Source of the DNA: an uncultured Prevotella sp. | GTDB lineage: Bacteria > Bacillota > Clostridia > Christensenellales > UBA1242 | Assembly (NCBI GenBank): GCA_964370495.1 | Contig: CAYJJH010000001.1 | Span: 5,499 to 65,897, forward strand | Direction of reading: 5' to 3' | Length of the DNA: 60,399 nucleotides | Part shown: positions 12,453 to 42,294 of the stretch, in pieces | How positions within the stretch are numbered: position 1 is the stretch's first letter | How the letters are laid out: the number at the start of each line of letters is the position of its first letter | Made by a program: the position numbers and the translations under genes | Notes under the pieces: generated by a model | Told to the model about the DNA's origin: nothing | The model's database searches: none | Seen by the model: only the letters and a program-made list of their open reading frames with translations

Positions 12453-13568
12453 TTAGATTGCGACAAAATCAATATATATTGCATAGCCTTTATTTGGATC
12501 GTGACTCATCGCATGGGTTAGTGCGCCGACCAGATGTCCATCTTGAATTATTGGACTGCCACTCATACCGTGAATTATTCCACCTGTTCGATTAAGCAAT
12601 CTTTTATCAGTAATTCTTATTATCATTGATTTATCTGCTTTGTTTTCTTGGAATCTTGTTTTTAATATCTGGCAATCAAACTCCTCTATGGTTACACCAT
12701 CAAGACTTGTCCGAAGTATAGCCTTGCCGGGTTTAACATTATATCGCGATGCGATTGGCATAGTCGTTGTCATACTTTGAAGAATTTCACTGTTGGCTGT
12801 AAGACAGCCCGTAACACCGAATTTTGTACCTTTGGTAATATCGCCCTGGACCTGGGTATTATTTTGTATCGAGCTTTTAATAACGCCTGTTTTGCCTTTT
12901 TTCGTTTTCTCTATCCCAAAAGTATTTACCGACTTAATTTCACCACCTCTTAAATTAACAGAAGCGCCCGTATTAAAATCTCCCATTTGATGCCCCAGTG
13001 CAGAGAAGTTATTATTTTCCGGATTTACCAGGGTAATTATGCCAACGCCTTCCGTTGTATCTCTGATGCTTATGCTGGCAGGCTTGGGGATTTTTTTTGT
13101 TATTTCTTTATCTTTTCTTAAAAAAGTAATTTCGGCTTGTTCCTTATTTTTTGTTAGATTAAAAAAATCATTTATATCACTTACTTTATTATTGTCAATT
13201 TTTGTAACCACATCGCCACGCTTGATATTCTTATTATTATAATCTTGGGTCACCAAAACCCCATCTATGTCACCACATATCCCAATTGGCGTACCTCCAA
13301 CCAAGACTGTTTCAAATGGTAAAATATTAACAGCTACTTTTTTTATGGGAATAAATCCAAACAGTTTTAATGTTATATATTTTTTATCATCTAAATTATT
13401 ACTAACGGGCGAATCTATATCTTTGTTTGATATTTCCAAATATTCGCTTTCGGTCAATGATATTTCTTCCGGGTGTATTATAACCTTTACAATGGGTGCC
13501 AAGACAAAGTTTAATGCAAGTAAAATTACAATAAACAAAAAAGAGAACCTAATTATACTTAGCTTCAT
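12453..13568 (-). CDS. spoIVB: SpoIVB peptidase (S55 family)
   Basis: HGMSGSPIIQDGHLVGALTH catalytic-Ser motif, a PDZ-like region and an N-terminal signal anchor. Start set at MKLSIIRF (ATG 13568) rather than the longest ORF. Confidence 0.8.
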   Translation of the reverse strand: MKLSIIRFSFLFIVILLALNFVLAPIVKVIIHPEEISLTESEYLEISNKDIDSPVSNNLDDKKYITLKLFGFIPIKKVAVNILPFETVLVGGTPIGICGDIDGVLVTQDYNNKNIKRGDVVTKIDNNKVSDINDFFNLTKNKEQAEITFLRKDKEITKKIPKPASISIRDTTEGVGIITLVNPENNNFSALGHQMGDFNTGASVNLRGGEIKSVNTFGIEKTKKGKTGVIKSSIQNNTQVQGDITKGTKFGVTGCLTANSEILQSMTTTMPIASRYNVKPGKAILRTSLDGVTIEEFDCQILKTRFQENKADKSMIIRITDKRLLNRTGGIIHGMSGSPIIQDGHLVGALTHAMSHDPNKGYAIYIDFVAI

Positions 13569-27658: not shown

Positions 27659-28681
27659 TTATTTTTTATTTTTTTGAGAAAGAGCTTCGTCTGCAATTTT
27701 TCTCATAAATTCAACGGTTTCAACAGGGTATTTACCTGTTGCACTTTCTGCAGATAACATTATAGCATTTGTTCCATCATAAACAGCATTAGCAACGTCT
27801 GTTGTTTCTGCTCTTGTTGGACGTGGGCTGCTGATCATTGATTCCATCATCTCTGTAGCTGTAACAACAAATTTATTTGCTTCATTACATTTTTTAATTA
27901 TTTCTTTTTGTACTGTTGGTATTTTTTCAATTGGGAATTCCACACCTAAATCTCCACGAGCAACCATAATACCATCTGAAACTTTAATAATTTCATCCAG
28001 GTTATTAAAACCTTGAACGCTTTCAATTTTTGATATTATCTTTATATCTTTACCAACTATTTCACGCATTTTAATTACATCATCTGCTTTATTAACAAAT
28101 GAAGCTGCAACTATGTCTATATTTTTAGATACACCAAATTCTAGATCAGCTTTATCTTCTTTTGATATAAAGTTAAGATTTGTGTCAACGCCAGGAACAA
28201 ATAAACTTTTTTTATTTGATAATTTTCCACCGTTAATAACTTTTGTAACTATTTCATTTTCTTTTATATCTTCAACAACACAAGATACAAGACCGTTATT
28301 AATTAAAATACTATTTCCTTTTGAAACATGTTTTGCTAAATCTTTATGTGAAATTGAAACACCGTTTTGATCACCTTCTCTTTCATCTGTGTAAAGAGAG
28401 AACATATCACCAGAATTTAAAAATACTTCGCCATTTTTAAATGTTCTTAAACGAATATCTGGTCCTTTTGTATCAAGTAAGATTTGAACATCTTTATTTA
28501 ATTCTTTTCTTAATCTGTGAATAAGATCAAATTTTTTACCGTGTTCATCAAAATCACCGTGACTAAAATTACATCTTGTAATAGTCATTCCGGCATTCAT
28601 TAACTTTGTTAATGTTTCTTCGTTCTCCGAAGCAGGTCCGATTGTACAGACAATGTCTATGTTTTTATTTATTTTCATCAT
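27659..28681 (-). CDS. pyk: pyruvate kinase lacking the C-terminal regulatory domain
   Basis: [39 protein letters not shown] and RPTRAE motifs. The protein ends at 340 aa, right after the A domain. Confidence 0.8.
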
Positions 28682-28685
28682 AGTT

Positions 28686-29243
28686 TTAACTATGTATTAA
28701 ATTGAAAATTTTGTCAATTGTTTTATCTAAATCTCTGTTTTCTACCACATAATCATAGTGTTTTGATTGCTTTATATACTCGTCATAATCTTCTAATCTG
28801 GCTTTAATATCTTCTGGTTTATCTTTTCTGTTTATTAATCTTTGTTCAATTGTTTCTTTATCTATTGTAATAAAAAAAGTTATTACATTATCAAATTTAC
28901 TTCTTAATGCTTTTACACCAACAAGATCACAATCTTTTAATGGTATTTTATTTTTATCTAAAATAGCGTTTATATATTTTTCACTCATACCTCTTTTTTC
29001 GTTATGTCTTACGGTATGTTCAAAAATATCTCCACTTGCTAACATTTTGTCAAATTCTTCATTTGAAACAAAATGATAAGGATTACCTTGGCTTTCATAT
29101 TCACGCATTGCTCTGGTTGCTACTGAAACCATTTTTTCAAATTCATTTGGATATTTTTTTATAAGTCCTGTTATGATACTATCTTTACCAACTCCACTTG
29201 GACCTTCTATAACTATAATTTTTTTGTTTTGATTATTATTCAT
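28686..29243 (-). CDS. guanylate kinase-like protein
   Basis: P-loop GPSGVGKDS and [19 protein letters not shown] (compare TTRxPRxGExxGxxYxF). Divergent from canonical Gmk in the GMP-binding YG region. Confidence 0.7.
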
Positions 29244-29302
29244 AAAATATTCTTCTTTTTATTATGTATTGTTAATATGTAAATAACTACTAACTAAAAC
29301 CT

Positions 29303-29348
29303 AGTATAAATAATTACTATTGACTAGTCAAATTTTATAATATAAGAT
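29303..29348. promoter_or_regulatory. divergent promoter pair sharing the palindrome TTGACTAGTCAA
   Basis: The 12-bp perfect palindrome at 29320-29331 gives a -35 TTGACT on both strands. Rightward: 17 nt then TAAGAT (29343-29348). Leftward: 17 nt then TATACT (complement of 29303-29308). Confidence 0.45.
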
Positions 29349-29420
29349 ATAAACTTGATTTAAATTCAATAATTTTTTAAATCTATCATAAATAAATTAT
29401 GGTAAAAAGGAAGGTATGTA

Positions 29421-30044
29421 ATGATAATCATAAAAAACCAAAAACAATTAGAAAGATTTTTTAATGAAAAGCATCAAAGCTATATATTTTTTCAAGATGT
29501 AAAAATTGATATGGATGTAATAGAAAGTGATAAAGGCGTAAAAGGTTATAATATACATGCTAATAATCTTAACGTAAACGAGCTTATAGTAAATAATATA
29601 GACGCTAAACAGATAGAAGTGATAAACAGCATAAAAGCAAATGATATTAACGCATATGATATAGAAGCATATAATATAAAAGCAAAAAACGTTAAAGCAA
29701 GTAATATAAGCGCTTTTAATTTAAGAGTAAATAATATAGAATCCGAAGTTATGAAAGTTAATGATGTAAATGCTCACGATATAAAAGCAAGTGAAATTAC
29801 AGCAAATGATATTTTAGCAAATAACATTACATCAAAAAATATAGACGCTAATGATATAGATGCTGAAAATATAATTACAGACTCGATCAAAGGCAATAAC
29901 GTAAGTACAAAAAATATAAAAGCAGATGAGTTTGATATTGTAAGTTTATCTGTGTCTGAAGCTATTACATTTAAAAAGCAAAGAATAAATATCAACACAA
30001 AAGGATTAAAAGAAATTTTAGACACGAAAGAAGAAACAAAATGA
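29421..30044 (+). CDS. 5-residue-repeat family protein P1 (207 aa)
   Basis: SD AAGGAAGG. N-cap MIIIKNQKQLERFFNEKHQSYIFFQDV, 20 consecutive in-register A-x-[DN]-[ILV]-x pentads and tail KKQRININTKGLKE. Confidence 0.8.
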   Translation: MIIIKNQKQLERFFNEKHQSYIFFQDVKIDMDVIESDKGVKGYNIHANNLNVNELIVNNIDAKQIEVINSIKANDINAYDIEAYNIKAKNVKASNISAFNLRVNNIESEVMKVNDVNAHDIKASEITANDILANNITSKNIDANDIDAENIITDSIKGNNVSTKNIKADEFDIVSLSVSEAITFKKQRININTKGLKEILDTKEETK

Positions 30045-30667
30045 TTACTATAAAAAATAGGGAAGAGTTAAAAAATTATTATGATAAAGAAACAAAATCC
30101 TATGTGTTTAATGAAGATGTAATTATTGAAATAGATAAACTATGTTTACCGTCAGATATTGTTGCAAAGAAAATAACCATTATAAATGCCTCGACAGAAA
30201 ATATAGAAGCAGAGGAGTTAAGTGGTAAAAATATATATTGTTGGGATATTAAAGCAAAAAAAATAAATATAGATAAAATTAATGCATTAGATATTGATAC
30301 AAATGTTTTAAAATCTAAAGAAGTTAATGCCCATAATATACAAGCGACAAAAATAGAAGCAGATTGTTTAAAAGCAAGAGATGTTATTTGTGAAGAAATA
30401 AACTCAATTAATGTCGCAGTAAATGATATAAAATCAAAAGATATAAATTTAATTAAAATAGAAAGTCAAAATATAGAAACAGAAAGCATAGTAGCAGATA
30501 AATTAAAATGTGATACATTGTCTGCTAACACTGTAAAAGCAAATGATATAGAAATTATGTATATGACGGAAGAGCAAGCGTTGCATTATAAAAAATATAA
30601 AATAAATATAAACACAAATGGATTCAAAGACGAGCAGGAGCAGGAATTAGAAATAAAAATTGTATGA
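30041..30667 (+). CDS. 5-residue-repeat family protein P2 (208 aa)
   Basis: ATGA overlap with P1. N-cap MITIKNREELKNYYDKETKSYVFNEDV, pentad repeats and tail KKYKININTNGFKD. Confidence 0.8.
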   Translation: MITIKNREELKNYYDKETKSYVFNEDVIIEIDKLCLPSDIVAKKITIINASTENIEAEELSGKNIYCWDIKAKKINIDKINALDIDTNVLKSKEVNAHNIQATKIEADCLKARDVICEEINSINVAVNDIKSKDINLIKIESQNIETESIVADKLKCDTLSANTVKANDIEIMYMTEEQALHYKKYKININTNGFKDEQEQELEIKIV

Positions 30668-30670
30668 TCA

Positions 30671-30699
30671 TTGACTTTTTGTTGTTTTTAATTTAATAT
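30671..30699 (+). promoter_or_regulatory. internal sigmaA-type promoter upstream of P3
   Basis: TTGACT, 17 nt, TAATAT, followed by SD AGAAGG and the ATG at 30727. Confidence 0.5.
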
Positions 30700-30726
30700 A
30701 AATTGAAAATACAAAAGAAGGTAAAT

Positions 30727-31587
30727 ATGATAACTATAGAAAGTAAAAAAGACCTTGAGCAGTATTATCACAAAAAAAGCGATAAATATATTTTTAATGA
30801 AGATGTATTTATTGACATAGACGACATAACTATTTTAAAAGATATTATTGGCGAAAATCTTTGGGCGAAAAATATTACAGCCAAAAACATTAACATAGAA
30901 AATATAGATGCAAAAAATTTAAATTGCTTAGATATTAAAGCAACAGACATAAGGCTAGATAAAGTGAAAGCTAATGATATAATGGCAGAAAATCTAAATG
31001 CTGATTCAGTAGAGGCAAATGAGATAGTTGTGGAAAAAGATATAGTGGCTAATACGCTAGAAGCCAACAGTATAACAGGAACCGAATTTTTTATACATGA
31101 CATAAAAGCTAATTCTATTGAAGGTATGGAAATTATAGCTAACAGTATTAATGTTCTAAAAATAGATATAGACGATGTCGTATCAGACAGCGTAACAGCC
31201 GAAGAAATAAACGTGGTAAATATAAAGGCTAATGACATAAAAGCCGAAATACTTATTGCTATGGGTGATATAGTTGCAAAGAATATAAAAGCAAATGAGT
31301 TTATTGGCAATAAAATAATGGCGGGCAAAGTTATTACTTCTTTAAATAAAACAACAAAAAACATAATGACAATTGGTGACATATATTCAAACGAAGTTAT
31401 TTCTGAAAGCTGTCAGCTTAAGGCTATAAAAAATATTCGTATGTTAAATATAAATACAAAAGACATAGATATAGATGAATTAATAATATCTAATAAAATA
31501 GTTTATAAAAAACATATACTTAACATAGACAAAAAAGGATTGAAAGAACAACAAAAAATATTGATCGAAAAAATGCTAGAGTATTGA
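30727..31587 (+). CDS. 5-residue-repeat family protein P3 (286 aa)
   Basis: Start set at MITIESKKDLEQYYHKKSDKYIFNEDV, matching the family N-cap. It has the longest repeat tract and tail YKKHILNIDKKGLKE. Confidence 0.8.
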   Translation: MITIESKKDLEQYYHKKSDKYIFNEDVFIDIDDITILKDIIGENLWAKNITAKNINIENIDAKNLNCLDIKATDIRLDKVKANDIMAENLNADSVEANEIVVEKDIVANTLEANSITGTEFFIHDIKANSIEGMEIIANSINVLKIDIDDVVSDSVTAEEINVVNIKANDIKAEILIAMGDIVAKNIKANEFIGNKIMAGKVITSLNKTTKNIMTIGDIYSNEVISESCQLKAIKNIRMLNINTKDIDIDELIISNKIVYKKHILNIDKKGLKEQQKILIEKMLEY

Positions 31588-31612
31588 CATTGGTATTATA
31601 CAAGCGTAAAAT
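31584..31612 (+). promoter_or_regulatory. internal sigmaA-type promoter upstream of P4
   Basis: TTGACA (overlapping the P3 stop), 17 nt, TAAAAT, then SD AGGAAGG and the ATG at 31640. Confidence 0.5.
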
Positions 31613-31639
31613 GTAAGGATAAAAAAAGGAAGGTATAAT

Positions 31640-32443
31640 ATGATAGAGATAAACAGTAGAGAAGATTTAAAAAAGTATTTTAACGAAAGCAAAGGAGAAT
31701 ATCTTTTTGAAAAAGATGTAACCATTAACATGAAATACTTGAGCGTAGAAGCAGATATTGTTGGTGAAAATATCACAGCAGGAGACCTAGCGGTTTATAA
31801 TATAGAGGCTAAAGAATTAAATACAAAAAACTTAACAGCAAATAATTTAATAGCTCAATATATTAATTCAGAAAATCTAACAGCCGCAGATGTTTATACA
31901 AACGATATAAAGGCTAAAAATATTAAAGCAACCAGTATAGTTGCTAATGACATTTTAGCAAACGACATAACCTGTGAAGATGTAAGGGTAAATAAAATAA
32001 TAGGAAATGATATTGCAATAGGCAATATAAAAGCAAGAACAGTGGTAGCAAGAGATATTGAAGCAGATGAAATATCAACCGAAGATTTAACAGCAAGAGC
32101 TGTTAAAGTAGAATATATTAAAGCAGATAAGGTTCATGTAAGTGAAATTAAATCTATAATTACAGAAGTAGATGATTTAGAAGCAAAAAAAATTCAAACA
32201 CAAAAGATCACAAGCAATAGAGTTTTAACAAAAGAAATTGCGGCAAATGAAAAGAAAATAGCTAATTTTATCTTTGTAGAAGTAAATAAAGATTGTACAA
32301 CAACTTCACATTATTCAAACGTTAATGACGAAGAAGAATTTTCTAAGGTAATGCGTCTTGATGATTTAGATGATAATGAAAAATTCTCTATGGTTAAAAA
32401 CTTTTCAGGCCTTAAATCAACAGAAGCAGACAAGGAAATATAA
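31640..32443 (+). CDS. 5-residue-repeat family protein P4 (267 aa)
   Basis: N-cap MIEINSREDLKKYFNESKGEYLFEKDV, pentad repeats and tail NFSGLKSTEADKEI. Confidence 0.8.
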   Translation: MIEINSREDLKKYFNESKGEYLFEKDVTINMKYLSVEADIVGENITAGDLAVYNIEAKELNTKNLTANNLIAQYINSENLTAADVYTNDIKAKNIKATSIVANDILANDITCEDVRVNKIIGNDIAIGNIKARTVVARDIEADEISTEDLTARAVKVEYIKADKVHVSEIKSIITEVDDLEAKKIQTQKITSNRVLTKEIAANEKKIANFIFVEVNKDCTTTSHYSNVNDEEEFSKVMRLDDLDDNEKFSMVKNFSGLKSTEADKEI

Positions 32444-32454
32444 GGGGTATAATT

Positions 32455-32997
32455 ATGATAACAATAAATAATATAAAAGATCTTGAACAATATTATAACA
32501 AAGATCAAAACGCATACATTTTTGAAGACGATGTAACAGTAACAAAACAAGGCCTAACTTTTGATTCAGATATAAAAGCTAAGACATTCAAAATAGGAGA
32601 GGGGCATAAAGATTCTTGGCTAAGAGCTAATGATATGGAATTCGAAAATCTTGAAGCAGAAGGCGTATATGTATATGCAAAAAACTTCAAAGCAAAAGAA
32701 GTAAACGCATACTGGGTAAATGCAAATGTATTCCGTGCAGAAGAAGCAACAGTTACTTTTTTAGAAGCAAGGGACGTAAAAGCAGGGGCAGTAAAATCTA
32801 ACTATATTGAATGTAAGGACATAGAAGTAGAAGAAAAACTTGAAGCGGATATAATTAAAGCAAAGCTTGCAATTGTTCCAAATGATAATAAAGTTAAAGA
32901 GTTAGGTGCAGAATATGTTATAACTCAAAAAAAGCAACAATTAGATGCAACATTTACCGGCTTGAAAGAAGATAAAGAAACAGGCATAGAGAGATAG
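32455..32997 (+). CDS. 5-residue-repeat family protein P5 (180 aa, short subfamily)
   Basis: SD AAGGGG. N-cap MITINNIKDLEQYYNKDQNAYIFEDDV, degenerate A-x-x-[VILF]-x pentads and tail DATFTGLKEDKETGIER. Confidence 0.8.
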   Translation: MITINNIKDLEQYYNKDQNAYIFEDDVTVTKQGLTFDSDIKAKTFKIGEGHKDSWLRANDMEFENLEAEGVYVYAKNFKAKEVNAYWVNANVFRAEEATVTFLEARDVKAGAVKSNYIECKDIEVEEKLEADIIKAKLAIVPNDNKVKELGAEYVITQKKQQLDATFTGLKEDKETGIER

Positions 32998-33007
32998 GAG
33001 AAATAAA

Positions 33008-33460
33008 ATGATATTTATAAATAGTGAAAAGTACCTTGGGAAATTCTATAATGAAAAACAAGGAGCATATATTTTTGATGACAATGTAATTGTTACAATA
33101 GAAAATTTAACCTTTGACGCAGATGTAAAAGGTAAAGATTTTAAAATTGGCAAGGGGTTCAAAGATTCAGTTCTTGAAGGTGATTCTATGGAATTTGAAA
33201 ACTTAGTGGCAAGTAATGTATATGCTAGATCATTGAAGGTAAAAAAGATAGAAGCATTTGAAGTAATAGCAGAGAACTTTGAAGCAGAAGAAGCAGAGGT
33301 TGATTTAATACACGCAGAAAATTCAGATATTAAAAACATAAAAGAGGTTGCTTATTTTGCTCAAAATGAAACTTCAGAAGCTAAAGAAGAAAAGCTTAAA
33401 ACACTAGATGCAAGTTTCACAGGATTGAAAGAAGATAAAGCAACAGGCATAGAGTTATAA
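33008..33460 (+). CDS. 5-residue-repeat family protein P6 (150 aa, short subfamily)
   Basis: SD GGAG. N-cap MIFINSEKYLGKFYNEKQGAYIFDDNV and tail DASFTGLKEDKATGIEL. Confidence 0.8.
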   Translation: MIFINSEKYLGKFYNEKQGAYIFDDNVIVTIENLTFDADVKGKDFKIGKGFKDSVLEGDSMEFENLVASNVYARSLKVKKIEAFEVIAENFEAEEAEVDLIHAENSDIKNIKEVAYFAQNETSEAKEEKLKTLDASFTGLKEDKATGIEL

Positions 33461-33471
33461 GGAGAAATAAA

Positions 33472-33888
33472 ATGATTACTATAAACAATATAAAAGAACT
33501 AGAGCAGTATTATAATAAAGAACAGAACGCATATGTATTCGAAGATGATGTAACTGCAGGGATAGATATAATAGTTGATTCCGATATAAAAGGTAAAAAT
33601 CTTGAATTTGCCGAAGGATATGGTCTTCTTGATGCGAATGAGATTCAATTTAAAAATCTTAGTGCCAGAGAAGTCTTTGCAAAATACTTAAAAGTAGATA
33701 CAGTAAATGCATTCCAAGTAGATGTAGACGTTTTAGATGCTGCCGAAGCAAAAGTTATATTGTTAGAGGCAAGGGCAAAAATCTTGAAACAGGTAACAGA
33801 GGGAGAACCAGAAGTAGAAAAGAAGCAAGAGTTAAGTGCAAACTTCACAGGCTTGAAAGAAGAGAAAGGGAATAGCATAGAAATATAA
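33472..33888 (+). CDS. 5-residue-repeat family protein P7 (138 aa, short subfamily)
   Basis: SD AAGGAG. N-cap MITINNIKELEQYYNKEQNAYVFEDDV and tail SANFTGLKEEKGNSIEI. Confidence 0.8.
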   Translation: MITINNIKELEQYYNKEQNAYVFEDDVTAGIDIIVDSDIKGKNLEFAEGYGLLDANEIQFKNLSAREVFAKYLKVDTVNAFQVDVDVLDAAEAKVILLEARAKILKQVTEGEPEVEKKQELSANFTGLKEEKGNSIEI

Positions 33889-33898
33889 AAGGTAATAT

Positions 33899-34435
33899 AT
33901 GATCTACATAAATCACATTGATGAATTGAGAAAGTATTATAATGAAAAGGAAGATGCCTATGTTTTTAATGAAGACATAGAAATGCATATTGATTTTATA
34001 AGTATATCAGAGAATATAAAAGGCAAGGATATAAAAGCCAAAGACATTATGGTATATAATATTTTTGCGGAAAATATATATGCAGAGAATATACAGTCAT
34101 ATGATATTTACGCAGACAATATTAAAGCGCATGATATAAATGCGCATGATATAAATTCAGCAAATATAGAAGCCGTAAATATAATTGCAAAAGATGTTGT
34201 AGCAAATGACATAAACGCAGATACGATAAATGCAAATACACTGGAATCAAGGGATATACAAGCTAACGATATTTATGTTAATAAAATAAAAGCAAACGAA
34301 GTTATAGCCAAGAACTTCAAGGCATCATCTATGTATATAAATGAATTTTATACAAAACAAGAAAAACAAATAGAAAAGCAAGAAATATTAAATAAAAAGA
34401 AATCACTTGATGGTTTTGTTAATATAATCCGCTAA
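33899..34435 (+). CDS. 5-residue-repeat family protein P8 (178 aa)
   Basis: N-cap MIYINHIDELRKYYNEKEDAYVFNEDI and very regular x-[DN]-I-x-A pentads. The family tail motif is missing and the last 33 nt overlap the glyQS 3' end. Confidence 0.75.
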   Translation: MIYINHIDELRKYYNEKEDAYVFNEDIEMHIDFISISENIKGKDIKAKDIMVYNIFAENIYAENIQSYDIYADNIKAHDINAHDINSANIEAVNIIAKDVVANDINADTINANTLESRDIQANDIYVNKIKANEVIAKNFKASSMYINEFYTKQEKQIEKQEILNKKKSLDGFVNIIR

Positions 34436-35758
34436 ATCTTTTACAGCTATTCGTTCTTGTTGCATTGTGTCTCTGTTACGCACAGTTACGCAATTATCAT
34501 TAAGAGTGTCATAATCTACGGTAATACAAAGTGGCGTTCCTATCTCGTCTTGGCGTCTGTAACGCTTACCAATAGAGCCTGCATCATCGTAGGTTACAGA
34601 AAAAGTATTTTGAAGCTCTCTATATATAGCGTCTGCTGTGTCTGTTAATCCTTTCTTTTGTAATGGCAATACACAGGCTTTGTATGGTGCAATGCTGGGT
34701 TTAAGTTTTAATACAATGCGTGTGTCGGTGTCATCAATTTTTTCTTCTGTATATGCATCGCAAAGCAGTGCAAGCAGCAACCTTTCTACACCTTGTGAAC
34801 TTTCAATTATAGTAGGTATAAATTTTTTGTTTGTAAATGGATCTAAATATTCCATAGATTTACCCGATAGGTTTTGATGATTTGTAAGATCATATACCCC
34901 ACGGTGGTGTGTCCCGTTAAGTTCCCCCCAACCAAAAGGATATTGATATTCCATATCACAAGCAGCAGAGCAATAGAAAACCAGCTTCTCGTGATCGTGG
35001 AAGCGTAAGTTTTCTTTTTTTAATCCTAATACATTGGTACAGAAATTATATTGTTTATTTTTATATTTTTCATATTCAGCAAGTGCATTTTTGTCCTCAC
35101 AAAAAAGTTGATGTTCCATTTGTTCGAACTCTATTGTTCTGAATATAAAATTACCCGGTGTTATTTCATTTCTAAATGCTTTACCAATTTGACCAATACC
35201 AAAAGGTAATTTAAGTCGCATAGAGCGTTGAACATTTTGAAAGTTTATATACTGACTTTGTGCTGTTTCAGGACGCAAATATATTTGGCTTAGTTTGTCT
35301 TGCGTTACGCCACGATGTGTTTCGAACATAAGATTAAATTGACGAATATCTGTCCAGTCCTTTTTGCCACATGTTGGACATTTTATGTTGTTCTTATTTA
35401 TATAATCAACCAAGTCTGTATTTGACCAACCATCAGCATTGATTTCTGGATTATGGCTTTCGATAAGTTTATCTGCTCTGGCTCTGGCTTTACAGGATTT
35501 ACAATCCATTAAAGGATCAGAAAAACCCGTTGCGTGTCCGCTGGCTACCCAAACATTTCGGTTTGTTAAAATACCACCGTCCAAACCTACGCTGTTTTCG
35601 TTTTTGCTTACAAATTCTTTCCACCATTCACGCTTAATGTTGTTCTTTAATTCAACACCAAGTGGACCATAGTCCCATGTATTTGCAAGTCCATCGTATA
35701 TTTCAGAACCTGGGAAAACAAATCCACGGCCTTTACATAATGAAAGTATTTTTTCCAT
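34403..35758 (-). CDS. glyQS: glycine--tRNA ligase (homodimeric type)
   Basis: RGFVFPGSEIYDGLANTWDYGPLG N-terminus and class II motifs (FRNEITPG, GxGxGxERL-like GVERLLLAL). Confidence 0.92.
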   Translation of the reverse strand: MEKILSLCKGRGFVFPGSEIYDGLANTWDYGPLGVELKNNIKREWWKEFVSKNENSVGLDGGILTNRNVWVASGHATGFSDPLMDCKSCKARARADKLIESHNPEINADGWSNTDLVDYINKNNIKCPTCGKKDWTDIRQFNLMFETHRGVTQDKLSQIYLRPETAQSQYINFQNVQRSMRLKLPFGIGQIGKAFRNEITPGNFIFRTIEFEQMEHQLFCEDKNALAEYEKYKNKQYNFCTNVLGLKKENLRFHDHEKLVFYCSAACDMEYQYPFGWGELNGTHHRGVYDLTNHQNLSGKSMEYLDPFTNKKFIPTIIESSQGVERLLLALLCDAYTEEKIDDTDTRIVLKLKPSIAPYKACVLPLQKKGLTDTADAIYRELQNTFSVTYDDAGSIGKRYRRQDEIGTPLCITVDYDTLNDNCVTVRNRDTMQQERIAVKDLADYINKTIK

Positions 35759-37383: not shown

Positions 37384-38085
37384 TTATAACGCACTAAGTG
37401 GCTTTTGTGCAATCACAGATTTTATCTTTTCCTTTAATTCGCTTTCGTGGAATACGTGTCTCTCTTCTTCCCAGGTATAACTTAGGTCATAGTTGTCGGT
37501 AAGTTCAAATGTTTTAAATTTAAGTCCTTGCATATATGCAATCATTTTTATTGTTGGTTTTAATATACGCTTTGCTCTTTCGGGCAGGGCAGCGATATAT
37601 TTTTCAGAGAAGTCTATTTTATATGGCTTACCATTATTGTCAGTTGTAAATATAACGTTCTTTGTAAACTTTTGTATTTCAAGCATACATATAGATTGGT
37701 ACATGCTGTCTAGTCCCATTTTTTCGGTTTTGCTAAGTTGTAATGATAAATGAGGTTTGATTTTGCTTAACTCTGTTTTAATTAAAGGATCAAGAGAATT
37801 ATTACCAACTTCGGTTTTGAAGTAAGCAGATATTTGTGGGAATATAATTTCAACCTTGCTTTCGTCGATGCTGGAGCTGCTTATTACCGTATCTTTTTTT
37901 GCAAGTATTTTTTTTCTTATTTTATTTATTTCTCGTTCGGTTATATCTTTGAAAAATAGGTTTGTAAAAACATAAGCGCGTTCAAGAGAATTTCTTACAA
38001 TCATTTCAGATTTTGGGCAGACAACATCGCCGTTCTCAGTTATTTTGAAACTTGCATCTATTGCTAAACAACTTCTATAATCCAT
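37384..38085 (-). CDS. hypothetical protein embedded in the dnaA-dnaN operon
   Basis: 233-aa ORF with a GGGGGA SD. It lies 24 nt after dnaN and 8 nt before serS. No recognised motif. Confidence 0.55.
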   Translation of the reverse strand: MDYRSCLAIDASFKITENGDVVCPKSEMIVRNSLERAYVFTNLFFKDITEREINKIRKKILAKKDTVISSSSIDESKVEIIFPQISAYFKTEVGNNSLDPLIKTELSKIKPHLSLQLSKTEKMGLDSMYQSICMLEIQKFTKNVIFTTDNNGKPYKIDFSEKYIAALPERAKRILKPTIKMIAYMQGLKFKTFELTDNYDLSYTWEEERHVFHESELKEKIKSVIAQKPLSAL

Positions 38086-38109: not shown

Positions 38110-39216
38110 TTATCCCAAACGCACAGGCAGTACAAGGAATAAATAGTCTTCTTTTTTTGCACCTGTAATAACGCATGGTGCAAGCGCCCCGTTAAATGAA
38201 ATTGTAATAAAATCATCTGTAATAGTATTTAACGCATCAAATAAATATTTTGCGTTAAATGCGATTTTAATATCTTGACCATCAAGATTTGCTGGTACGC
38301 GTTCGTTAATTTTACCCATTTCATTATTTGCGTTAATTTCAACTTGTTTATCTTTTGTTGATAGTGTAAGTACATTGACTTTGCCAACACCATACAATAA
38401 ACCAGCACGTCCAACCGCAGCACGGAAAGGTGCAGTTTCAACCACGATGTTTGAATTAAAAGCAGTAGGTATAATTTGTTTATAATTTACAAATTCTCCG
38501 TCAATTAATCTGGAAGCGAAAACTGTTGATCCAACCTGGATTTGTACAAATTTATTTTCAATGATGATATTGATAATGTCATTATCATCAATGATCATAC
38601 GCTTCATTTGATCAAGCGCGCTTGCAGGAATAATTATTTTTGCTGTTGTTTCGGCTTTAATGATTGGTTTAACCAATTTTGAAAGACGGAAACCATTAAG
38701 ACTTACAGTTGTTAAAGTATTGCTGGTAGCATCAATTTGGAATAATGTACCTCTTAAAACTGGGCGTGAATTGTCAGTAGATGTAAATGGTGTGCTTTTT
38801 GTAATTACATCACGAAGTTCGCCAGCTTTAATTGAAAAACTAGGTTTAGCAGATAAATTAACAAGATCAGGATATTCTTTAATAGGTAAGCAAGAAAAAT
38901 TACCATTGTTAGCATCTCCATGCTCGATAACTGCTGTATCATTGCTGCTTGTGAAAGTAATTTGTCCGTCTGTTACTTTGGCAATATATTCGCCAAATAA
39001 TTTGCCCGGTAAAACAGCTGATCCTTCTTCTTTTACTGTTGCGTGAATAGTGCTTCTTATATATAGCTCTAAATCAGTTGCAAAAAAAGTAACTTGGTCT
39101 TTTTCTGCCACTATTTTAATACCTTCTAAAATAGGGTTAAGTGTTCTGCCGTTTGCTGCGTGTGAAACGGTAGAAATCGCATTTTTTAGGTCACTGCCTT
39201 CACATATAAATTTCAT
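38110..39216 (-). CDS. dnaN: DNA polymerase III subunit beta
   Basis: MKFICEGSDLKNAISTVSHA start, three-domain length and an LPVRL C-terminus. Confidence 0.92.
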   Translation of the reverse strand: MKFICEGSDLKNAISTVSHAANGRTLNPILEGIKIVAEKDQVTFFATDLELYIRSTIHATVKEEGSAVLPGKLFGEYIAKVTDGQITFTSSNDTAVIEHGDANNGNFSCLPIKEYPDLVNLSAKPSFSIKAGELRDVITKSTPFTSTDNSRPVLRGTLFQIDATSNTLTTVSLNGFRLSKLVKPIIKAETTAKIIIPASALDQMKRMIIDDNDIINIIIENKFVQIQVGSTVFASRLIDGEFVNYKQIIPTAFNSNIVVETAPFRAAVGRAGLLYGVGKVNVLTLSTKDKQVEINANNEMGKINERVPANLDGQDIKIAFNAKYLFDALNTITDDFITISFNGALAPCVITGAKKEDYLFLVLPVRLG

Positions 39217-39248
39217 AAAAAAAATATATCATACTATCGGGGCAGTGT

Positions 39249-40601
39249 CTATTTGTTTAGTTGCGCCATTATGTCATCTATGGCTGTTTTAAGCTTTTCA
39301 TCCTTCTTCATTTGGGTTGCAATTTTATCACGAGAGTATATAACGGAAGCATGTGTTCTGCCGCCCAACATTTCGCCAACCTCGGTTAATGGTACATCAT
39401 TAAGTTTCTCTGTCATGATATAAGCCGCAACCATTCTTGGATAAGCTAATTCATCTGTACGTCTTTTACCTGTTAAATCATCTGGTGCAATGTTAAAGTA
39501 TGAACCTACGGTTGCAATGATTCTGGAACCGCTGTCAGTAAGTGAATTATAGTTATCTTCATTTGCAAGTGCGGACTTGCAATCTTCTAAGGTCGGGATA
39601 GTGCGATCGTTTAATTCTGCATAGAAAATTATTTTGAACAATCTACCTTCCATATCTCGTATATTTTCATTTATATTAAAAGAATGCTCTGCAATTATAG
39701 ATGCTATATCATCGGGTAAAAATTTACCTTCTAATTTAGATTTCTTTTGCAATATTGCAATTCGTGTTTCAACATCTGGGTTTCGTATATCTTGAAGTAA
39801 TCCGCCCTTAAATCTTGATTTCATTCTTTCTGCTAAGGTAGCAATTTCGTTTGGGTGGCGGTCACTGGTAATTATTATTTGTCTGTTGTGTTCGAATAGG
39901 TCATTAAAGGTATGAAAGAACTCTTCCTGTGTTGCTTGCTTGTTTGTAATTTCTTGCATATCATCAACCAACAATACATCGGCATTTCTGTACTTTTCAC
40001 GGAAAGCAGAGAAGTCACCTTTTTGACGAATAATCTCTACATAATCTTTTGTGAATTTTTGTATAGAGGTTAATATGATTTTAAGCTCAGGTTGGTTTTC
40101 CATAATATGGTTTGCAATAGCATTAAGCAAATGTGTCTTGCCAAGTCCAGATCGTCCATATATAAATAGAGGGTTGATTTTTTTACCTGGTTGTTTTGCT
40201 GTGAATTCTGCTGCGGCTGCAACCTCTTGATTAGACCTGCCGACTATGAAATTTTCAAATGTTTGTTGTGGGTTAATTGTATTATGTCTAACGATTTGAT
40301 CGGGCAATTGTACGGCTTCAGGTTCTTTATCTTTGTTCTCTCGTTTCTCTTTTTCTATTGCGTCTATTATAGTTATTTTTTCAACAATAGGCGCAACCGT
40401 TTTAACCGCATAATCAATATGTGGAAAATGTCTTTCATTATTTGCATAATTGGCATCTCGGGTAGAATTTGCAGATAATATAAAAGCCCCGTCTTCGAAT
40501 GCTTCCGGCATCAATGGTTTAATATACAAATCAAAAGATATGCTACTAACATTGTTTTCAATAATAGGCATAGCCTTCTTCCAAATTTCTTTTACGTCCA
40601 T
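39249..40601 (-). CDS. dnaA: chromosomal replication initiator protein DnaA
   Basis: NPLFIYGRSGLGKTHLL Walker A, LLVDDMQ, and a domain IV DnaA signature (HASVIYSRDKI). Confidence 0.95.
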   Translation of the reverse strand: MDVKEIWKKAMPIIENNVSSISFDLYIKPLMPEAFEDGAFILSANSTRDANYANNERHFPHIDYAVKTVAPIVEKITIIDAIEKEKRENKDKEPEAVQLPDQIVRHNTINPQQTFENFIVGRSNQEVAAAAEFTAKQPGKKINPLFIYGRSGLGKTHLLNAIANHIMENQPELKIILTSIQKFTKDYVEIIRQKGDFSAFREKYRNADVLLVDDMQEITNKQATQEEFFHTFNDLFEHNRQIIITSDRHPNEIATLAERMKSRFKGGLLQDIRNPDVETRIAILQKKSKLEGKFLPDDIASIIAEHSFNINENIRDMEGRLFKIIFYAELNDRTIPTLEDCKSALANEDNYNSLTDSGSRIIATVGSYFNIAPDDLTGKRRTDELAYPRMVAAYIMTEKLNDVPLTEVGEMLGGRTHASVIYSRDKIATQMKKDEKLKTAIDDIMAQLNK

Positions 40602-40634
40602 AACTAAATTACATTATAAGTTACTTACAATAAA

Positions 40635-40643
40635 TTGTCCACA
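40635..40643 (+). promoter_or_regulatory. DnaA box TTGTCCACA (8/9 match to TTATCCACA)
   Basis: The only DnaA-box-like 9-mer I can find in the 105-bp dnaA-rpmH intergenic region. Confidence 0.45.
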
Positions 40644-40669
40644 ATCTAAAACAAAATCAAAAGTTAGTG

Positions 40670-40699
40670 TTGACTACTTCGCCTAACATAATATATAAT
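40670..40699 (+). promoter_or_regulatory. putative rpmH promoter, leaderless geometry
   Basis: TTGACT, 18 nt, TATAAT. The ATG at 40707 lies 7 nt after the -10 and there is no SD. Confidence 0.5.
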
Positions 40700-40706
40700 T
40701 ATCTTT

Positions 40707-40844
40707 ATGAAAAGAACTTGGCAACCTAGTAAAATTAAAAGAGTCCGTACAGTAGGTTTTCGTAAAAGAATGAAAACAGCAGGGGGGCGTAATGTTTTGC
40801 GCCGTCGTAGAGCAAGAGGACGCAAAAAACTTATTAACCTATAA
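40707..40844 (+). CDS. rpmH: 50S ribosomal protein L34
   Basis: Not in the ORF track because it is short. Translation: [45 protein letters not shown]. Confidence 0.92.
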
Positions 40845-40846
40845 TT

Positions 40847-41179
40847 ATGTTACCTATTAAATATAGACTTAAAAAAAGAAAGACTTTTAATTACATTTAT
40901 AGAAATGGCAAACGATTAAGCGGCGACTTCGTTAATATTTTTTATTGCCCTACGGGTGGTATGAAAATTGGATTTAGTGCAAATAAAAAAGTTGGCAACA
41001 GCATAGTTCGTCATAGGGCAGTAAGACTTATGCGTGAAGGGGTTAAACCGTTACTTAATAAATTAAATACAAAAAATAATTATATTTTTATTGCAAAAGA
41101 AGGCTTGCAAAAACAACACCTTCTATATATAACATTAGATATTGAAAAGACTTTGAAAAACTCTAACCTTGTGATATAG
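40847..41179 (+). CDS. rnpA: ribonuclease P protein component
   Basis: Starts 3 nt after rpmH. Basic 110-aa protein with KYRLKKRKTFNYIYRNGKR. Confidence 0.85.
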   Translation: MLPIKYRLKKRKTFNYIYRNGKRLSGDFVNIFYCPTGGMKIGFSANKKVGNSIVRHRAVRLMREGVKPLLNKLNTKNNYIFIAKEGLQKQHLLYITLDIEKTLKNSNLVI

Positions 41180-41187
41180 TATACGCT

Positions 41188-42294
41188 ATGGATGTAGTTT
41201 TTCCGTCTACCGATAATTGGATAATAGAATTTGTTTACTGGATGATAGAAAGCATTTTAAGTTGGGGCTGGCTATCCTATGGATTTGCTATCATATTTAT
41301 GACCTTGTTCATAAAGTTGATAATGTCTCCGCTTGATTTCTTGAACAGATATTTTACAAGAAAAAATCAATTAAGAATGCAGGAGTTCGCGCCCGAAGAA
41401 GAAAAGCTTAAAAAGATATACGCAAATGATCCTATGGCTTATATGAAAGCAAGATCTGAACTTCACCGCAGAGATGGTAATGGCGGCAGCGGTGGGATGG
41501 CATTGGTAATGCTAACTAGTGTAGTTTTAAGTATGATAGTTTTTTTTAATGTGTTTGGTGCACTTGGTGATATATCTAATGCTAACTTAAATCAACAATA
41601 TGCAAAGTTGGAAGCAGTATATGATCAATATAGTGCAAGTGGAGAAGAGACATTAAAAGCCGAACTTAATGAAGAATTTGATAATACGACCACTCCATTT
41701 TTATGGGTAAAAAACATATGGCGATCCGATAGCATGTGGACAGATTCAGTTATGACATTTGAAGAGTACCAAGACAGTTTTGCAGATGGCGTAATTGCAG
41801 ATTCTGAAAAAGCCAAATACGAAGAAATATATGGATACATAGATGCAGACAAAAAAGGTATGAATGGTTGGTTGATACTTGTAATAATGGTTGCTTTAGC
41901 CAGCTGGGGAAGTATGAAATTGACTACCTATATGACCAGCAAAAATGCACCAAAGAAAACAACAACGGAAGCAGAAAAGGTTGAACCAATTATTACCTAT
42001 TCATTAAGAGATGCAAAAGAGCAATCAAGTGATGTGCCAAACATAGATCCTGCTCAGGTAGGAAATATGATGCAGGTTATTATGCCTGTAATATTAATCT
42101 TCTTTGCTATTGGACAAACCGCTGCATTTGCTGTGTATATGATTTCGTCTTCTGTTATTACAACAGGTCTTAATATGCTTTACTCTTGGGCAACCAATTT
42201 AATGCTTAAAAATCAAAAGCCCAAGGTTAAAATAGGTGGGTTTGATTCTAACATAATAAATCCACACGCAAAATACTTTAAGGGAGGAAAATAA
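41188..42294 (+). CDS. yidC: membrane protein insertase YidC/Oxa1 family
   Basis: Position after rnpA. TM core with IKLIMSPL and a C-terminal amphipathic/TM region. Confidence 0.8.
   Translation: MDVVFPSTDNWIIEFVYWMIESILSWGWLSYGFAIIFMTLFIKLIMSPLDFLNRYFTRKNQLRMQEFAPEEEKLKKIYANDPMAYMKARSELHRRDGNGGSGGMALVMLTSVVLSMIVFFNVFGALGDISNANLNQQYAKLEAVYDQYSASGEETLKAELNEEFDNTTTPFLWVKNIWRSDSMWTDSVMTFEEYQDSFADGVIADSEKAKYEEIYGYIDADKKGMNGWLILVIMVALASWGSMKLTTYMTSKNAPKKTTTEAEKVEPIITYSLRDAKEQSSDVPNIDPAQVGNMMQVIMPVILIFFAIGQTAAFAVYMISSSVITTGLNMLYSWATNLMLKNQKPKVKIGGFDSNIINPHAKYFKGGK

Follow-up and report, generated by a model that had tools for sequence, protein, structure and literature searches.

Eight paralogous genes for predicted capped solenoid proteins with rare phage relatives, apparently acquired as a single insertion in a gut Clostridia genome

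The 60,399-nucleotide stretch of DNA analysed here (hereafter "the window") belongs to an uncultured, low-GC gut Clostridia genome and carries an array of eight co-oriented, closely packed plus-strand genes (positions 29421-34435) coding for paralogues of 138-286 aa, named P1 to P8. Comparison with related genomes indicates that this array was acquired as one 5.1-kb insertion, absent from the closest relatives compared, while its products share an N-terminal cap and a five-residue repeat tract, predicted to fold as a capped β-solenoid, with rare proteins of phages and prophages. We consider it very probable that family identity, architecture, and insertion hold jointly.

All eight consecutive reading frames of the original prediction were recovered at identical coordinates and lengths. 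P1 (29421..30044, 207 aa) consists of the N-cap, ~29 pentapeptides, and a predicted disordered tail with KKQRININTKGLKE; P2 (30041..30667, 208 aa) overlaps the P1 stop with its start (ATGA); and P3 (30727..31587, 286 aa from its ATG) has the longest solenoid, with register shifts in the repeats. For P3, an alternative TTG at 30703 is also open, and the ATG at 30727 is preceded by GAAGG. In P4 (31640..32443, 267 aa), the C-terminal region is acidic and extended, with FSGLKS as its last residues. A short subgroup comprises P5 (32455..32997, 180 aa; degenerate repeats and tail KKQQLDATFTGLKED), P6 (33008..33460, 150 aa), and P7 (33472..33888, 138 aa; N-cap 1-37, solenoid 38-105, disordered tail 112-137), and P8 (33899..34435, 178 aa) shows the most regular repeats of the eight, with a tail cut by the insertion junction. 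Largely as had been claimed, genes are either overlapping or preceded by a Shine-Dalgarno sequence: ATGA joins P1 and P2, and a purine-rich, Shine-Dalgarno-like stretch lies just upstream of six of the seven other genes; that of P8 is weak (AAAGG). The products are acidic (pI 4.45-5.2, net charge -6 to -15) and, in line with the predicted lack of transmembrane helices, their maximum 19-residue Kyte-Doolittle window does not exceed 1.12 in any of the eight, against 2.37 for a YidC control.

The possibility, raised at the outset, that these frames reflect spurious translation of AT-rich repeat DNA is contradicted by the codon pattern of the N-caps and by the tandem repeats in the array, which are short and weak at the DNA level. 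Across the eight gap-free N-caps, codon positions 1, 2, and 3 differ at 0.39, 0.24, and 0.47, respectively, i.e. the second position is the most conserved, and identical residues are encoded by different codons in 32% of pairs; this combination argues that P1-P8 are real genes. Mutual identity ranges from 22 to 54%, which points to old, diverged paralogues. For five of the eight products, the public protein collection contains no exact sequence; P5 is included in it as P0001.

The N-terminal cap spans 37 aa and is conserved in all eight proteins, with M1, I2, I4, L10, Y21, and F23 invariant across P1-P8 (alignment A1); a shared cap had been anticipated from the first reading of the sequence. 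The repeat tract that follows has a five-residue unit with consensus [ILV]-x-[A]-x-[ND], in which position i is I (38%), V (13%), or L (13%), i+2 is A (37%), i-1 is N/D/E, and i-2 is N/K/E/D (W/Y/R/K in the phage relatives). Identity at multiple-of-5 lags is mostly 2-6x the off-lag background, and weakest in P5-P7. A left-handed hexapeptide-repeat β-helix ([LIV]-G-x-x-[STAV]-x) was rejected given this period of 5, an identity at lag 6 that equals background, and Foldseek TM scores of ~0.2. Solenoid length is ~29 repeats in P1 and ~13 in P7, with roughly a dozen to 40-odd across the eight proteins. The C-terminal motif proposed for seven of the eight proteins stood in part: a common G-[LF]-K is found in P1-P7, but the motif as written is exact only in P1, P2, and P5, and P8 has a degenerate copy (KQEILNKKKSLDG).

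High-confidence AlphaFold2 predictions agree with the earlier proposal of a β-solenoid whose length is set by repeat number, both for P1 (pLDDT 89, pTM 0.81, unbroken β over residues 39-184) and for P7 (pLDDT 97-98 over residues 1-100, <50 over 112-137). Cap and repeats together are confidently predicted to form a capped β-solenoid, with an α/β cap. The C-terminal "cap" of the original prediction is instead modelled as a disordered tail (pLDDT <50) bearing a short conserved motif, and a motif so placed does not form a cap. In Foldseek, the closest neighbours of the two models were triangular β-helices, namely the antifreeze protein CfAFP-501 (spruce budworm, 15 residues per coil), left-handed hexapeptide-repeat enzymes (GlmU, LpxA, gamma-carbonic anhydrase), bactofilin, and tapirin, and all were weak (E>=1e-3 for P1, E>=0.58 for P7; TM mostly ~0.2, best 0.57 for tapirin). 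The window proteins have a sequence period of 5, not 6, and lack an enzymatic or ice-binding motif. Structural neighbours in BFVD were uncharacterised Caudovirales proteins.

The insert measures 5,137 bp (29279-34415) and lies in the extreme 3' end of glyQS (34403..35758, minus strand), with the array on the opposite strand; it splits the terminal part of this essential tRNA-synthetase gene. In the relatives L011 and L013, glyQS, gmk, and pyk are directly adjacent, without the array, and DNA homology to relatives breaks at ~34457 and resumes at 29288. A 10-bp direct repeat, TTGTTAATAT, matches exactly at the left (29269..29278) and right (34416..34425) insertion junctions, these being two of its three exact matches in the window, vs ~1 expected. 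What remains of the ancestral 3' end of glyQS (29240..29288, minus strand) is near-identical to the sequence of L011 and L013 (GTTATTAACATATTAACATCCTATAATAAAAAGAAGAATATTTTATGA); it still overlaps the gmk start codon and is now severed from glyQS. GlyRS ends in ..KDLADYINKTIK*, 11 aa short of the L011 and L013 protein (..KDLPQKVINILTSYNKKKNIL*), and insert DNA encodes part of this C-terminus; conversely, the last six residues of P8 (FVNIIR*) are read from antisense glyQS. GlyRS identity to the closest relatives compared is 76-79%. The local tandem amplification initially suggested is not supported: the whole block is one insertion, absent from relatives, of paralogues that are already old. GC3 of the array genes (0.16-0.25) falls inside the host range (0.12-0.32), and composition therefore gives no sign of a foreign origin.

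None of the eight proteins obtained a significant model in Pfam, NCBIfam, PHROG, or PADLOC, as expected from the earlier failure to assign them. Even with the threshold relaxed to E<=1, PF00805, PF13599, PF13576, and PF04519 failed to match any of these proteins, the first three likewise matched none of 9 phage relatives, and no PADLOC-DB 2.0 defence model matched at or below E 0.05. An exhaustive profile search returned 7,819 proteins, of which the best 150 were nearly all 700-5,400 aa long and matched at profile positions ~40-170 only. Giant proteins resembling phage fibres commonly carry this type of repeat. These giants (phrog_26466, phrog_32822; sub-threshold PF25296 'Decapeptide repeat region') have the same A-x-x-I-x register as the window proteins, and are annotated in ways that point to components of virions or fibres. 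However, they are huge and without N-cap and tail, whereas P1-P8 are small stand-alone proteins with a cap. The family provides a link to these very large and poorly understood repeat tracts.

The family is not confined to this genome: its N-cap and repeats are homologous to those of rare phage and prophage proteins. Searches yielded 15 small homologues with the same N-cap, plus further ones, for a set of ~30 rare relatives sharing N-cap and repeats (including P0004-P0011 and P0017; loci L001, L005-L010, L015, and L018-L027). The HMM from A4 scores P1-P8 at 1e-18 to 1e-22, and hhalign connects the window family to the relatives with 99.3% probability (E 9e-21) over cap and repeats only, the C-termini remaining unaligned. 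The relatives resemble the window proteins in their N-cap (MITINNxxELxxYYxxxxNxYxFxDDV), in A-x-[ND]-I-x repeats directly after it, in size, in variable repeat number, and in tandem or multiple copies, often two or three; the only N-cap-sharing relatives found are rare, small, unnamed proteins. Every relative with readable context maps to phage or prophage DNA, in most cases to a stretch of early, DNA-replication, or recombination genes. These contexts include a T4-like contig with gp21 and gp23; a neighbourhood of YqaJ, DnaB, primase, methyltransferase, and resolvase; a prophage in which integrase, protease, repressor, and an HTH gene precede the family gene, followed by Sak4, SSB, and an ERCC4 nuclease; a gene adjoining RtcB and an HNH endonuclease; and three copies on a contig without cellular marker genes. 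Except for the double-module P0012, relatives with a readable C-terminus all end in a Cys/His-rich cap, probably metal-binding (IS[YF]YAxCxAYxxxKCxSxxGxRxNxx[HC]x[HC]LD), whereas the window proteins end in the KKxxLxxxxxG[LF]K[ED] tail, predicted to be disordered. The corresponding pattern, C-x7-C-x10-11-[HC]-x-[HC], is absent from all eight window proteins (P1, P6, P7, and P8 have no Cys at all), and the window-type tail was not found in IMG/VR. Given this difference in C-terminal module, what the phage relatives do need not apply to P1-P8.

We propose that members of this family are phage accessory proteins that would work inside the cell as rigid, acidic binding rods. Such a rod may compete as a mimic or decoy, its target being a nucleic-acid-handling or defence protein, in the manner of DNA-mimic anti-restriction proteins and Qnr/MfpA-type solenoids, with specificity set by outward-facing repeat positions and by repeat number. 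The eight versions in the cassette would then form a diversified panel, and their common tail motif would dock all of them to one shared partner. Taken as a whole, mechanism included, this reading of the insert as a phage-type cassette of capped solenoids acting as acidic cytoplasmic binding or mimic rods in phage-host conflict is the most likely of those considered and plausible, if somewhat short of an even chance; the mimic or decoy mechanism of the family, drawn by analogy, is tentative and rather doubtful. Ocr and ArdA are small acidic anti-restriction DNA mimics of phages and mobile elements, made early during entry (PMC7261183, PMC2731889). Their likeness to the window proteins is a working analogy only, with no sequence or fold kinship, and the charge density of the latter is much lower, their acidity being moderate rather than extreme. 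As a functional class, DNA mimics bind and inhibit a DNA-binding enzyme and carry surface charges patterned after DNA phosphates; the charge figures given above for P1-P8 are bulk values. A bolder and unlikely extension is that N-cap solenoids represent an unrecognised class of phage intracellular mimics or inhibitors built on a new β-helix geometry (a small residue at i+2 and possibly three pentapeptides per coil, cf. the 15-residue antifreeze helices). In this view, the cassette would have been captured and diversified, now serving the host as decoys for proteins of phages or competitors, and the shared tail motif would recruit a common host partner. If the proposed role is true, the family would provide a new scaffold for phage-host conflict, a capped pentapeptide solenoid with a consensus unlike that of classical pentapeptide-repeat proteins, and the insert would be a clean case in which a bacterial chromosome has taken up a phage-type cassette of several genes. 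In any case, with ~140-290 aa and no name in existing libraries, these proteins are a compact, defined, and confidently foldable target.

Alternatively, the paralogues could be self-assembling structural proteins whose solenoids stack head-to-tail or laterally, with the tail motif docking on a neighbour's cap, into a cytoskeletal or spore-associated filament or sheet comparable to bactofilins. A solenoid core with a disordered terminal tail, the length variation among paralogues, the presence of bactofilin among the non-significant Foldseek neighbours, and a SpoIVB-type peptidase encoded in the host genome, which makes the host a probable spore-former, would all fit. This explanation is nevertheless improbable: none of the nearest relatives has the array, not even L012 and L014, which also carry SpoIVB, homologues sit among early and DNA-metabolism phage genes rather than structural modules, PF04519 (whose lone match was a phage-type relative, P0016, at E 0.09) is unmatched in all eight, and a solenoid capped or tailed at both ends is normally blocked from end-to-end growth.

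Still less likely is that P1-P8 are canonical pentapeptide-repeat proteins of the Qnr/MfpA/AlbG type, shielding DNA gyrase or topoisomerase IV by DNA mimicry. Pentapeptide-repeat proteins have at least eight contiguous five-residue repeats, with consensus [STAV][DN][LF][STR][G], a small residue at i-2, and Leu/Phe at i (PMC8145042). Their fold is a right-handed quadrilateral β-helix in which each coil comprises four repeats. The eight proteins do contain at least eight contiguous repeats, and share with PF00805 proteins (Qnr, MfpA, AlbG, Np275/276, and DotG repeats) the period of 5, an Asp/Asn-preceded hydrophobic centre, a β-solenoid rod (predicted here), an acidic and cytoplasmic nature, and a weak-to-moderate profile similarity, with PDB pentapeptide solenoids matched by profile search (DotG at 4.9e-8, synthetic RFR designs at 1e-4); in addition, gyrB and gyrA are close by. 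However, the small hydrophobic residue is an Ala at i+2 and not at i-2, which is polar or aromatic, the centre is Ile rather than Leu/Phe, the N-cap is distinct, no Qnr-like loops are evident, and none of the three pentapeptide models matched. Further, no quadrilateral RFR structure was found among the 50 best Foldseek matches of either the P1 or the P7 model, the weak triangular helices being nearest. Judged by repeat consensus and Pfam matches, P1-P8 are not canonical pentapeptide-repeat proteins.

Small acidic cytoplasmic proteins that have diverged and are encoded in tandem are typical of immunity islands. The layout of this horizontally acquired array would suit an orphan set that neutralises different polymorphic toxins of competitors, yet neither a toxin gene, or a fragment of one, nor a gene for a secretion system lies in the insert, no known immunity family was matched, and homologues lie in phage early regions, not toxin loci, which leaves this explanation little probability. 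Finally, a functionless, phage-derived remnant drifting without selection in its host could account for a block seen in a single genome, the clipped P8 tail, and the five products without an exact public counterpart, but is unlikely given eight intact frames at such divergence, the retained cap and tail motifs, ribosome-binding sites on most genes, and second codon positions that are the most conserved.

Besides the eight paralogues, the insert contains only a short promoter-like leader, and no partner or mobility gene. In this non-coding left end (29279..29420, plus strand), each strand can draw a -35 hexamer, by consensus match only, from the palindrome TTGACTAGTCAA (29320-29331). The promoter scan, likewise limited to consensus matches, pairs it with TAAGAT on the plus strand (29320-29348, towards P1) and with TATACT on the minus strand (29331-29303, towards gmk); the insert appears to bring its own divergent promoters. 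Elsewhere in the window, gyrB and gyrA are located ~9 kb from the array. A putative internal promoter upstream of P4 (31584..31612, plus strand; TTGACA-17-TAAAAT, 11/12) is, as a consensus match only, the best sigma-70-like match in the region.

The eight consecutive plus-strand paralogues P1–P8 (29421–34435) constitute a cassette of old paralogues that was acquired horizontally; outside the window, their family is found in phage and prophage DNA. Each is an acidic, cytoplasmic protein with an N-terminal cap, a predicted solenoid of varying length and a conserved motif in a disordered tail. All eight open reading frames of the original prediction were recovered in the ORF list, flanked by gmk/pyk and glyQS/mazG/serS, all on the minus strand. 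Neighbouring genes are spaced by −4 to 59 nt, and P1 and P2 are joined by an ATGA overlap. Each gene had been credited with a Shine–Dalgarno (SD) sequence or an overlap; besides the P1/P2 overlap, a purine-rich SD-like stretch lies close upstream in six of seven cases, that of P8 being weak. Spurious translation of repeat DNA had been raised as a concern, but the codon pattern identifies P1–P8 as genuine genes: across gap-free codons of the N-terminal cap (N-cap) in all 28 paralogue pairs, codon positions 1, 2 and 3 differ at 0.39, 0.24 and 0.47, and where residues are identical, the codons differ in about 32% of pairs. DNA tandem repeats within the genes are short and imperfect (period 15, 2–3.6 copies). 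Open frames antisense to the repeat tracts, S/I/F/L-rich and up to 204 aa long (30768–31382, minus strand, and others within 29774–33878), are most likely artefacts mirroring the sense-strand repeat codons, not genes.

The proteins share 22–54% mutual identity, and the predicted common N-terminus holds for all eight, with M1, I2, I4, L10, Y21 and F23 invariant in their alignment. The shared C-terminal motif held for P1–P7 as G-[LF]-K after a basic, Ile/Leu-containing stretch, the P8 copy being degenerate. All are acidic (pI 4.45–5.2), and none has a hydrophobic segment, in keeping with the anticipated lack of transmembrane helices (maximum Kyte–Doolittle 19-residue mean of 1.12 across P1–P8 vs 2.37 for YidC). 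The proposed 5-residue repeats appear as identities at lags 5, 10, 15 and onwards that are mostly 2–6 times those at other lags, weakest in P5–P7, and the lag identities gave no clear signal of a 15- or 20-residue super-period. The repeat consensus is [I38 V13 L13]-x-[A37, then V/I/S/T]-x-[N/D/E], compared with [STAV][DN][LF][STR][G] in classical pentapeptide-repeat proteins (PRPs), which carry a small inward-facing residue at i-2 (PMC8145042). In the register of the profile alignment to PDB pentapeptide solenoids, the P family has Ala at i+2 and a polar or aromatic residue at i-2.

In line with the original view that the family could not be assigned to anything characterised, scans of Pfam, NCBIfam, PHROGs and PADLOC with all eight proteins and with their phage relatives gave nothing above threshold; within Pfam, neither a pentapeptide model nor bactofilin was matched by the eight even at E ≤ 1. 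Literature searches covering pentapeptide repeats in connection with phage or anti-defence, decapeptide repeats, and beta-solenoid phage paralogues yielded no characterised relative. A sequence profile against the PDB finds pentapeptide solenoids (DotG repeats, 4.9e-8; synthetic designs of the quadrilateral pentapeptide-repeat fold, RFR, 1e-4), and a profile of the N-cap by itself had no PDB match (best E 0.24). Of the 7,819 proteins retrieved by an exhaustive HMM search, the best 150 are almost all 700–5,400 aa long and match the repeat part only; these giants dominate the best 150, and cap-bearing members are not countable from that search. Sampled giants contain A-G-T-I-T/A-E-K-I-A tracts, as is typical of fibre-like giant phage proteins, and the giant repeat proteins match PF25296 below threshold. 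P1–P8 and their phage relatives weakly match two large PHROG families, one of which bears a virion structural protein annotation. The repeat type is thus a common one; the family-defining feature is the cap.

An AlphaFold2 model of P1, built from the eight-paralogue alignment (pLDDT 89, pTM 0.81), comprises a small alpha/beta cap at residues 1–37 (strand, helix, three strands) and continuous beta structure over residues 39–184 (pLDDT 91–98), with the last ~20 residues below 50; that of P7, from a 23-sequence alignment, reaches 97–98 over residues 1–100 and falls below 50 over 112–137. Because the C-terminal ends of both models fall below pLDDT 50, the region first described as a C-terminal cap is instead a predicted disordered tail with a conserved short motif. 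In Foldseek, neither model had a significant match in the PDB, and P1 had no convincing fold match in BFVD. The best, non-significant PDB neighbours are triangular beta-helices, namely GlmU/LpxA/LpxD, tapirin (TM 0.57), the budworm antifreeze protein with 15 residues per coil, gamma-carbonic anhydrase and bactofilin; no RFR structure is among the best 50 matches of either model. The P proteins are neither bactofilins nor hexapeptide-repeat proteins, but a pentapeptide-type beta-solenoid, distinguished by the cap, the shifted consensus, the phage link and a clean insertion into an essential gene.

The family, which the original prediction had described from this genome, is not confined to it. 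Among 5.8 billion proteins, a profile search found 17 matches: P5 and P6 themselves, and 15 small proteins (101–298 aa) that share the N-cap (MITINNLEEMKKYY..TNTY.F.DDV) and whose A-x-[ND]-I-x repeats are cleaner. All but one of these 15 end, unlike P1–P8, in IS[YF]YAxCxAYxxxKCxSxxGxRxNxx[HC]x[HC]LD, in which the conserved Cys and His residues suggest metal binding; in the exception, P0012 (298 aa), the cap-plus-solenoid module is duplicated internally. Profile–profile comparison of the window and phage sets (99.3% probability, E 9e-21) covered the cap and repeats and not the C-termini. By cap and repeats, P1–P8 do belong to an unnamed phage family, without its C-terminal cap.

All readable contexts of the relatives are phage-like. 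They include a T4-like contig that encodes prohead protease and gp23 and has two adjacent copies; a contig with YqaJ, DnaB, primase, methyltransferase and resolvase; a viral contig with the family gene near an RtcB ligase and an HNH endonuclease; and a contig with three copies and no cellular marker genes. In a Clostridia MAG prophage, the family member is preceded by an integrase, an ImmA-like protease, a repressor and an HTH gene, and followed by a replication-terminator-like gene, Sak4, SSB and an ERCC4 nuclease. Phage contigs carry tandem pairs or three dispersed copies (L001, 9496–10477; L007, 459–1654; L023, 1362–2034; L015, 389–6948), and some phage copies have C-terminal extensions (L007, 249 aa; L010, 207 aa). 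A tail-fibre assembly chaperone was discarded as a candidate, with no identifiable fibre gene beside the family gene in the readable phage contexts. Three further loci came from 185,579 species-representative genomes, two from IMG/VR and ten from JGI metagenomes, while tblastn against GenBank phages yielded nothing with P5 and a single weak match with the phage type; hence, the family is real but rare.

GyrB and GlyRS, with best non-self identities of 88% and 79%, place the genome among uncultured gut MAGs of Clostridia, Eubacteriales or Christensenellaceae-like type. Of the relatives with usable contigs, the two closest (L011 and L013) have glyQS, gmk and pyk directly adjacent and co-oriented, the glyQS stop overlapping the gmk start. 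Aligned to L011 by blastn, the window loses homology at ~34457 and regains it at 29288. Upstream of gmk, 29240–29288 is a relic of the last 15 codons of ancestral glyQS (L011/L013 counterpart VINILTSYNKKKNIL), and the window GlyRS stops early with a new C-terminus (..KDLADYINKTIK), which leaves it 11 aa shorter than its counterparts in relatives. Both junctions (29269–29278 and 34416–34425) carry the 10-bp direct repeat TTGTTAATAT as exact copies; it occurs three times in the 60-kb window vs about one expected. Together, these features delimit a 5,137-bp insert (29279–34415), consisting of a 142-bp leader and the eight genes, in which no integrase or transposase was found; the last six residues of P8 are an antisense reading of glyQS. 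Because the ancestral site already holds a tandem ATTAACAT, the direct repeat may be either a true target-site duplication or microhomology. Composition was rejected as evidence of foreign origin, as cassette GC3 (0.16–0.25) overlaps that of the host; its low GC overall is an effect of amino-acid composition. We hold the family identity and the insertion with high confidence. In a third relative, L014, the glyQS|gmk junction (11529–13100) holds an unrelated 523-aa polytopic membrane protein, and the junction may thus be a recurrent insertion site.

The cassette leader contains a perfect 12-bp palindrome, TTGACTAGTCAA (29320–29331), with a −35 hexamer on both strands and −10-like hexamers 17 nt away, one pair directed towards P1 and one towards gmk. 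The pair directed towards P1 spans 29320–29348, and another predicted promoter lies at 31584–31612. Judged by sequence, the palindrome could be an operator or a pair of divergent promoters that came with the insert; on these consensus matches, the promoter facing gmk would restore gmk–pyk transcription after its separation from glyQS.

As to function, we tentatively propose that the family could act as a rigid intracellular binding or mimic rod against a nucleic-acid-handling or defence protein, an idea drawn from the location of relatives in phage early or DNA-metabolism regions, from the multiple diverged copies expected in arms races, and from the precedents set by Qnr and MfpA, which are acidic solenoids, and by the small acidic phage proteins Ocr and ArdA (PMC7980463, PMC7261183, PMC2731889). 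That P1–P8 carry a common tail motif in place of the Cys/His cap suggests that they may all dock to a single partner. Rival explanations are self-assembling structural proteins, canonical PRP gyrase protectors, an array of orphan immunity genes and functionless cargo. Of the four PRP-defining features tested, consensus and Pfam model are missing and so, provisionally, is a third, the fold.

The G[LF]K tail occurs in none of the family members found outside the window; a P5–P7 profile and a degenerate FTGLKE[DE]K DNA pattern gave chance matches only in IMG/VR, where a scan for the KEFN subgroup found none. The tail segments QQLDATF and QELSANF resemble QL[SD]LF, and dnaN is nearby; a beta-clamp-binding motif was rejected, as P1–P3 have ININT/LNIDK there and the common part is just G[LF]K.

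Elsewhere in the window, minus-strand dnaA and dnaN meet plus-strand yidC, jag, gyrB and gyrA (38110–41188), a strand switch that marks a likely replication origin at ~40.6–41.2 kb. The cassette lies at a distance of 6–11 kb and its transcription runs towards this origin; provided that the origin is placed correctly, it is thus head-on to replication. At Rfam gathering thresholds, the whole window contains four tRNAs only, with no T-box leader upstream of glyQS, serS, leuS or the class I Glu/Gln-type tRNA synthetase gene; such absence is unusual for Clostridia. The remark that this organism is a spore-former gains support from a SpoIVB-type peptidase gene in the window. A conserved 233-aa gene without a Pfam match (37384–38085, minus strand) lies between dnaN and serS, and has the same position in L011, L013 and L014 (234–238 aa). 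Pyruvate kinase (27659–28681, minus strand) is just 340 aa, the barrel domain alone without the C-terminal regulatory domain, a short form also present in relatives (340–342 aa). Beside pyk, relatives carry another tandem array of 174–371-aa paralogues (L013, 13347–19649; L014, 14733–16341; both minus strand), missing from the window. These paralogues share the conserved motif LPFHTRDxAWL, match nothing in Pfam and may represent a second uncharacterised paralogue family in this lineage.
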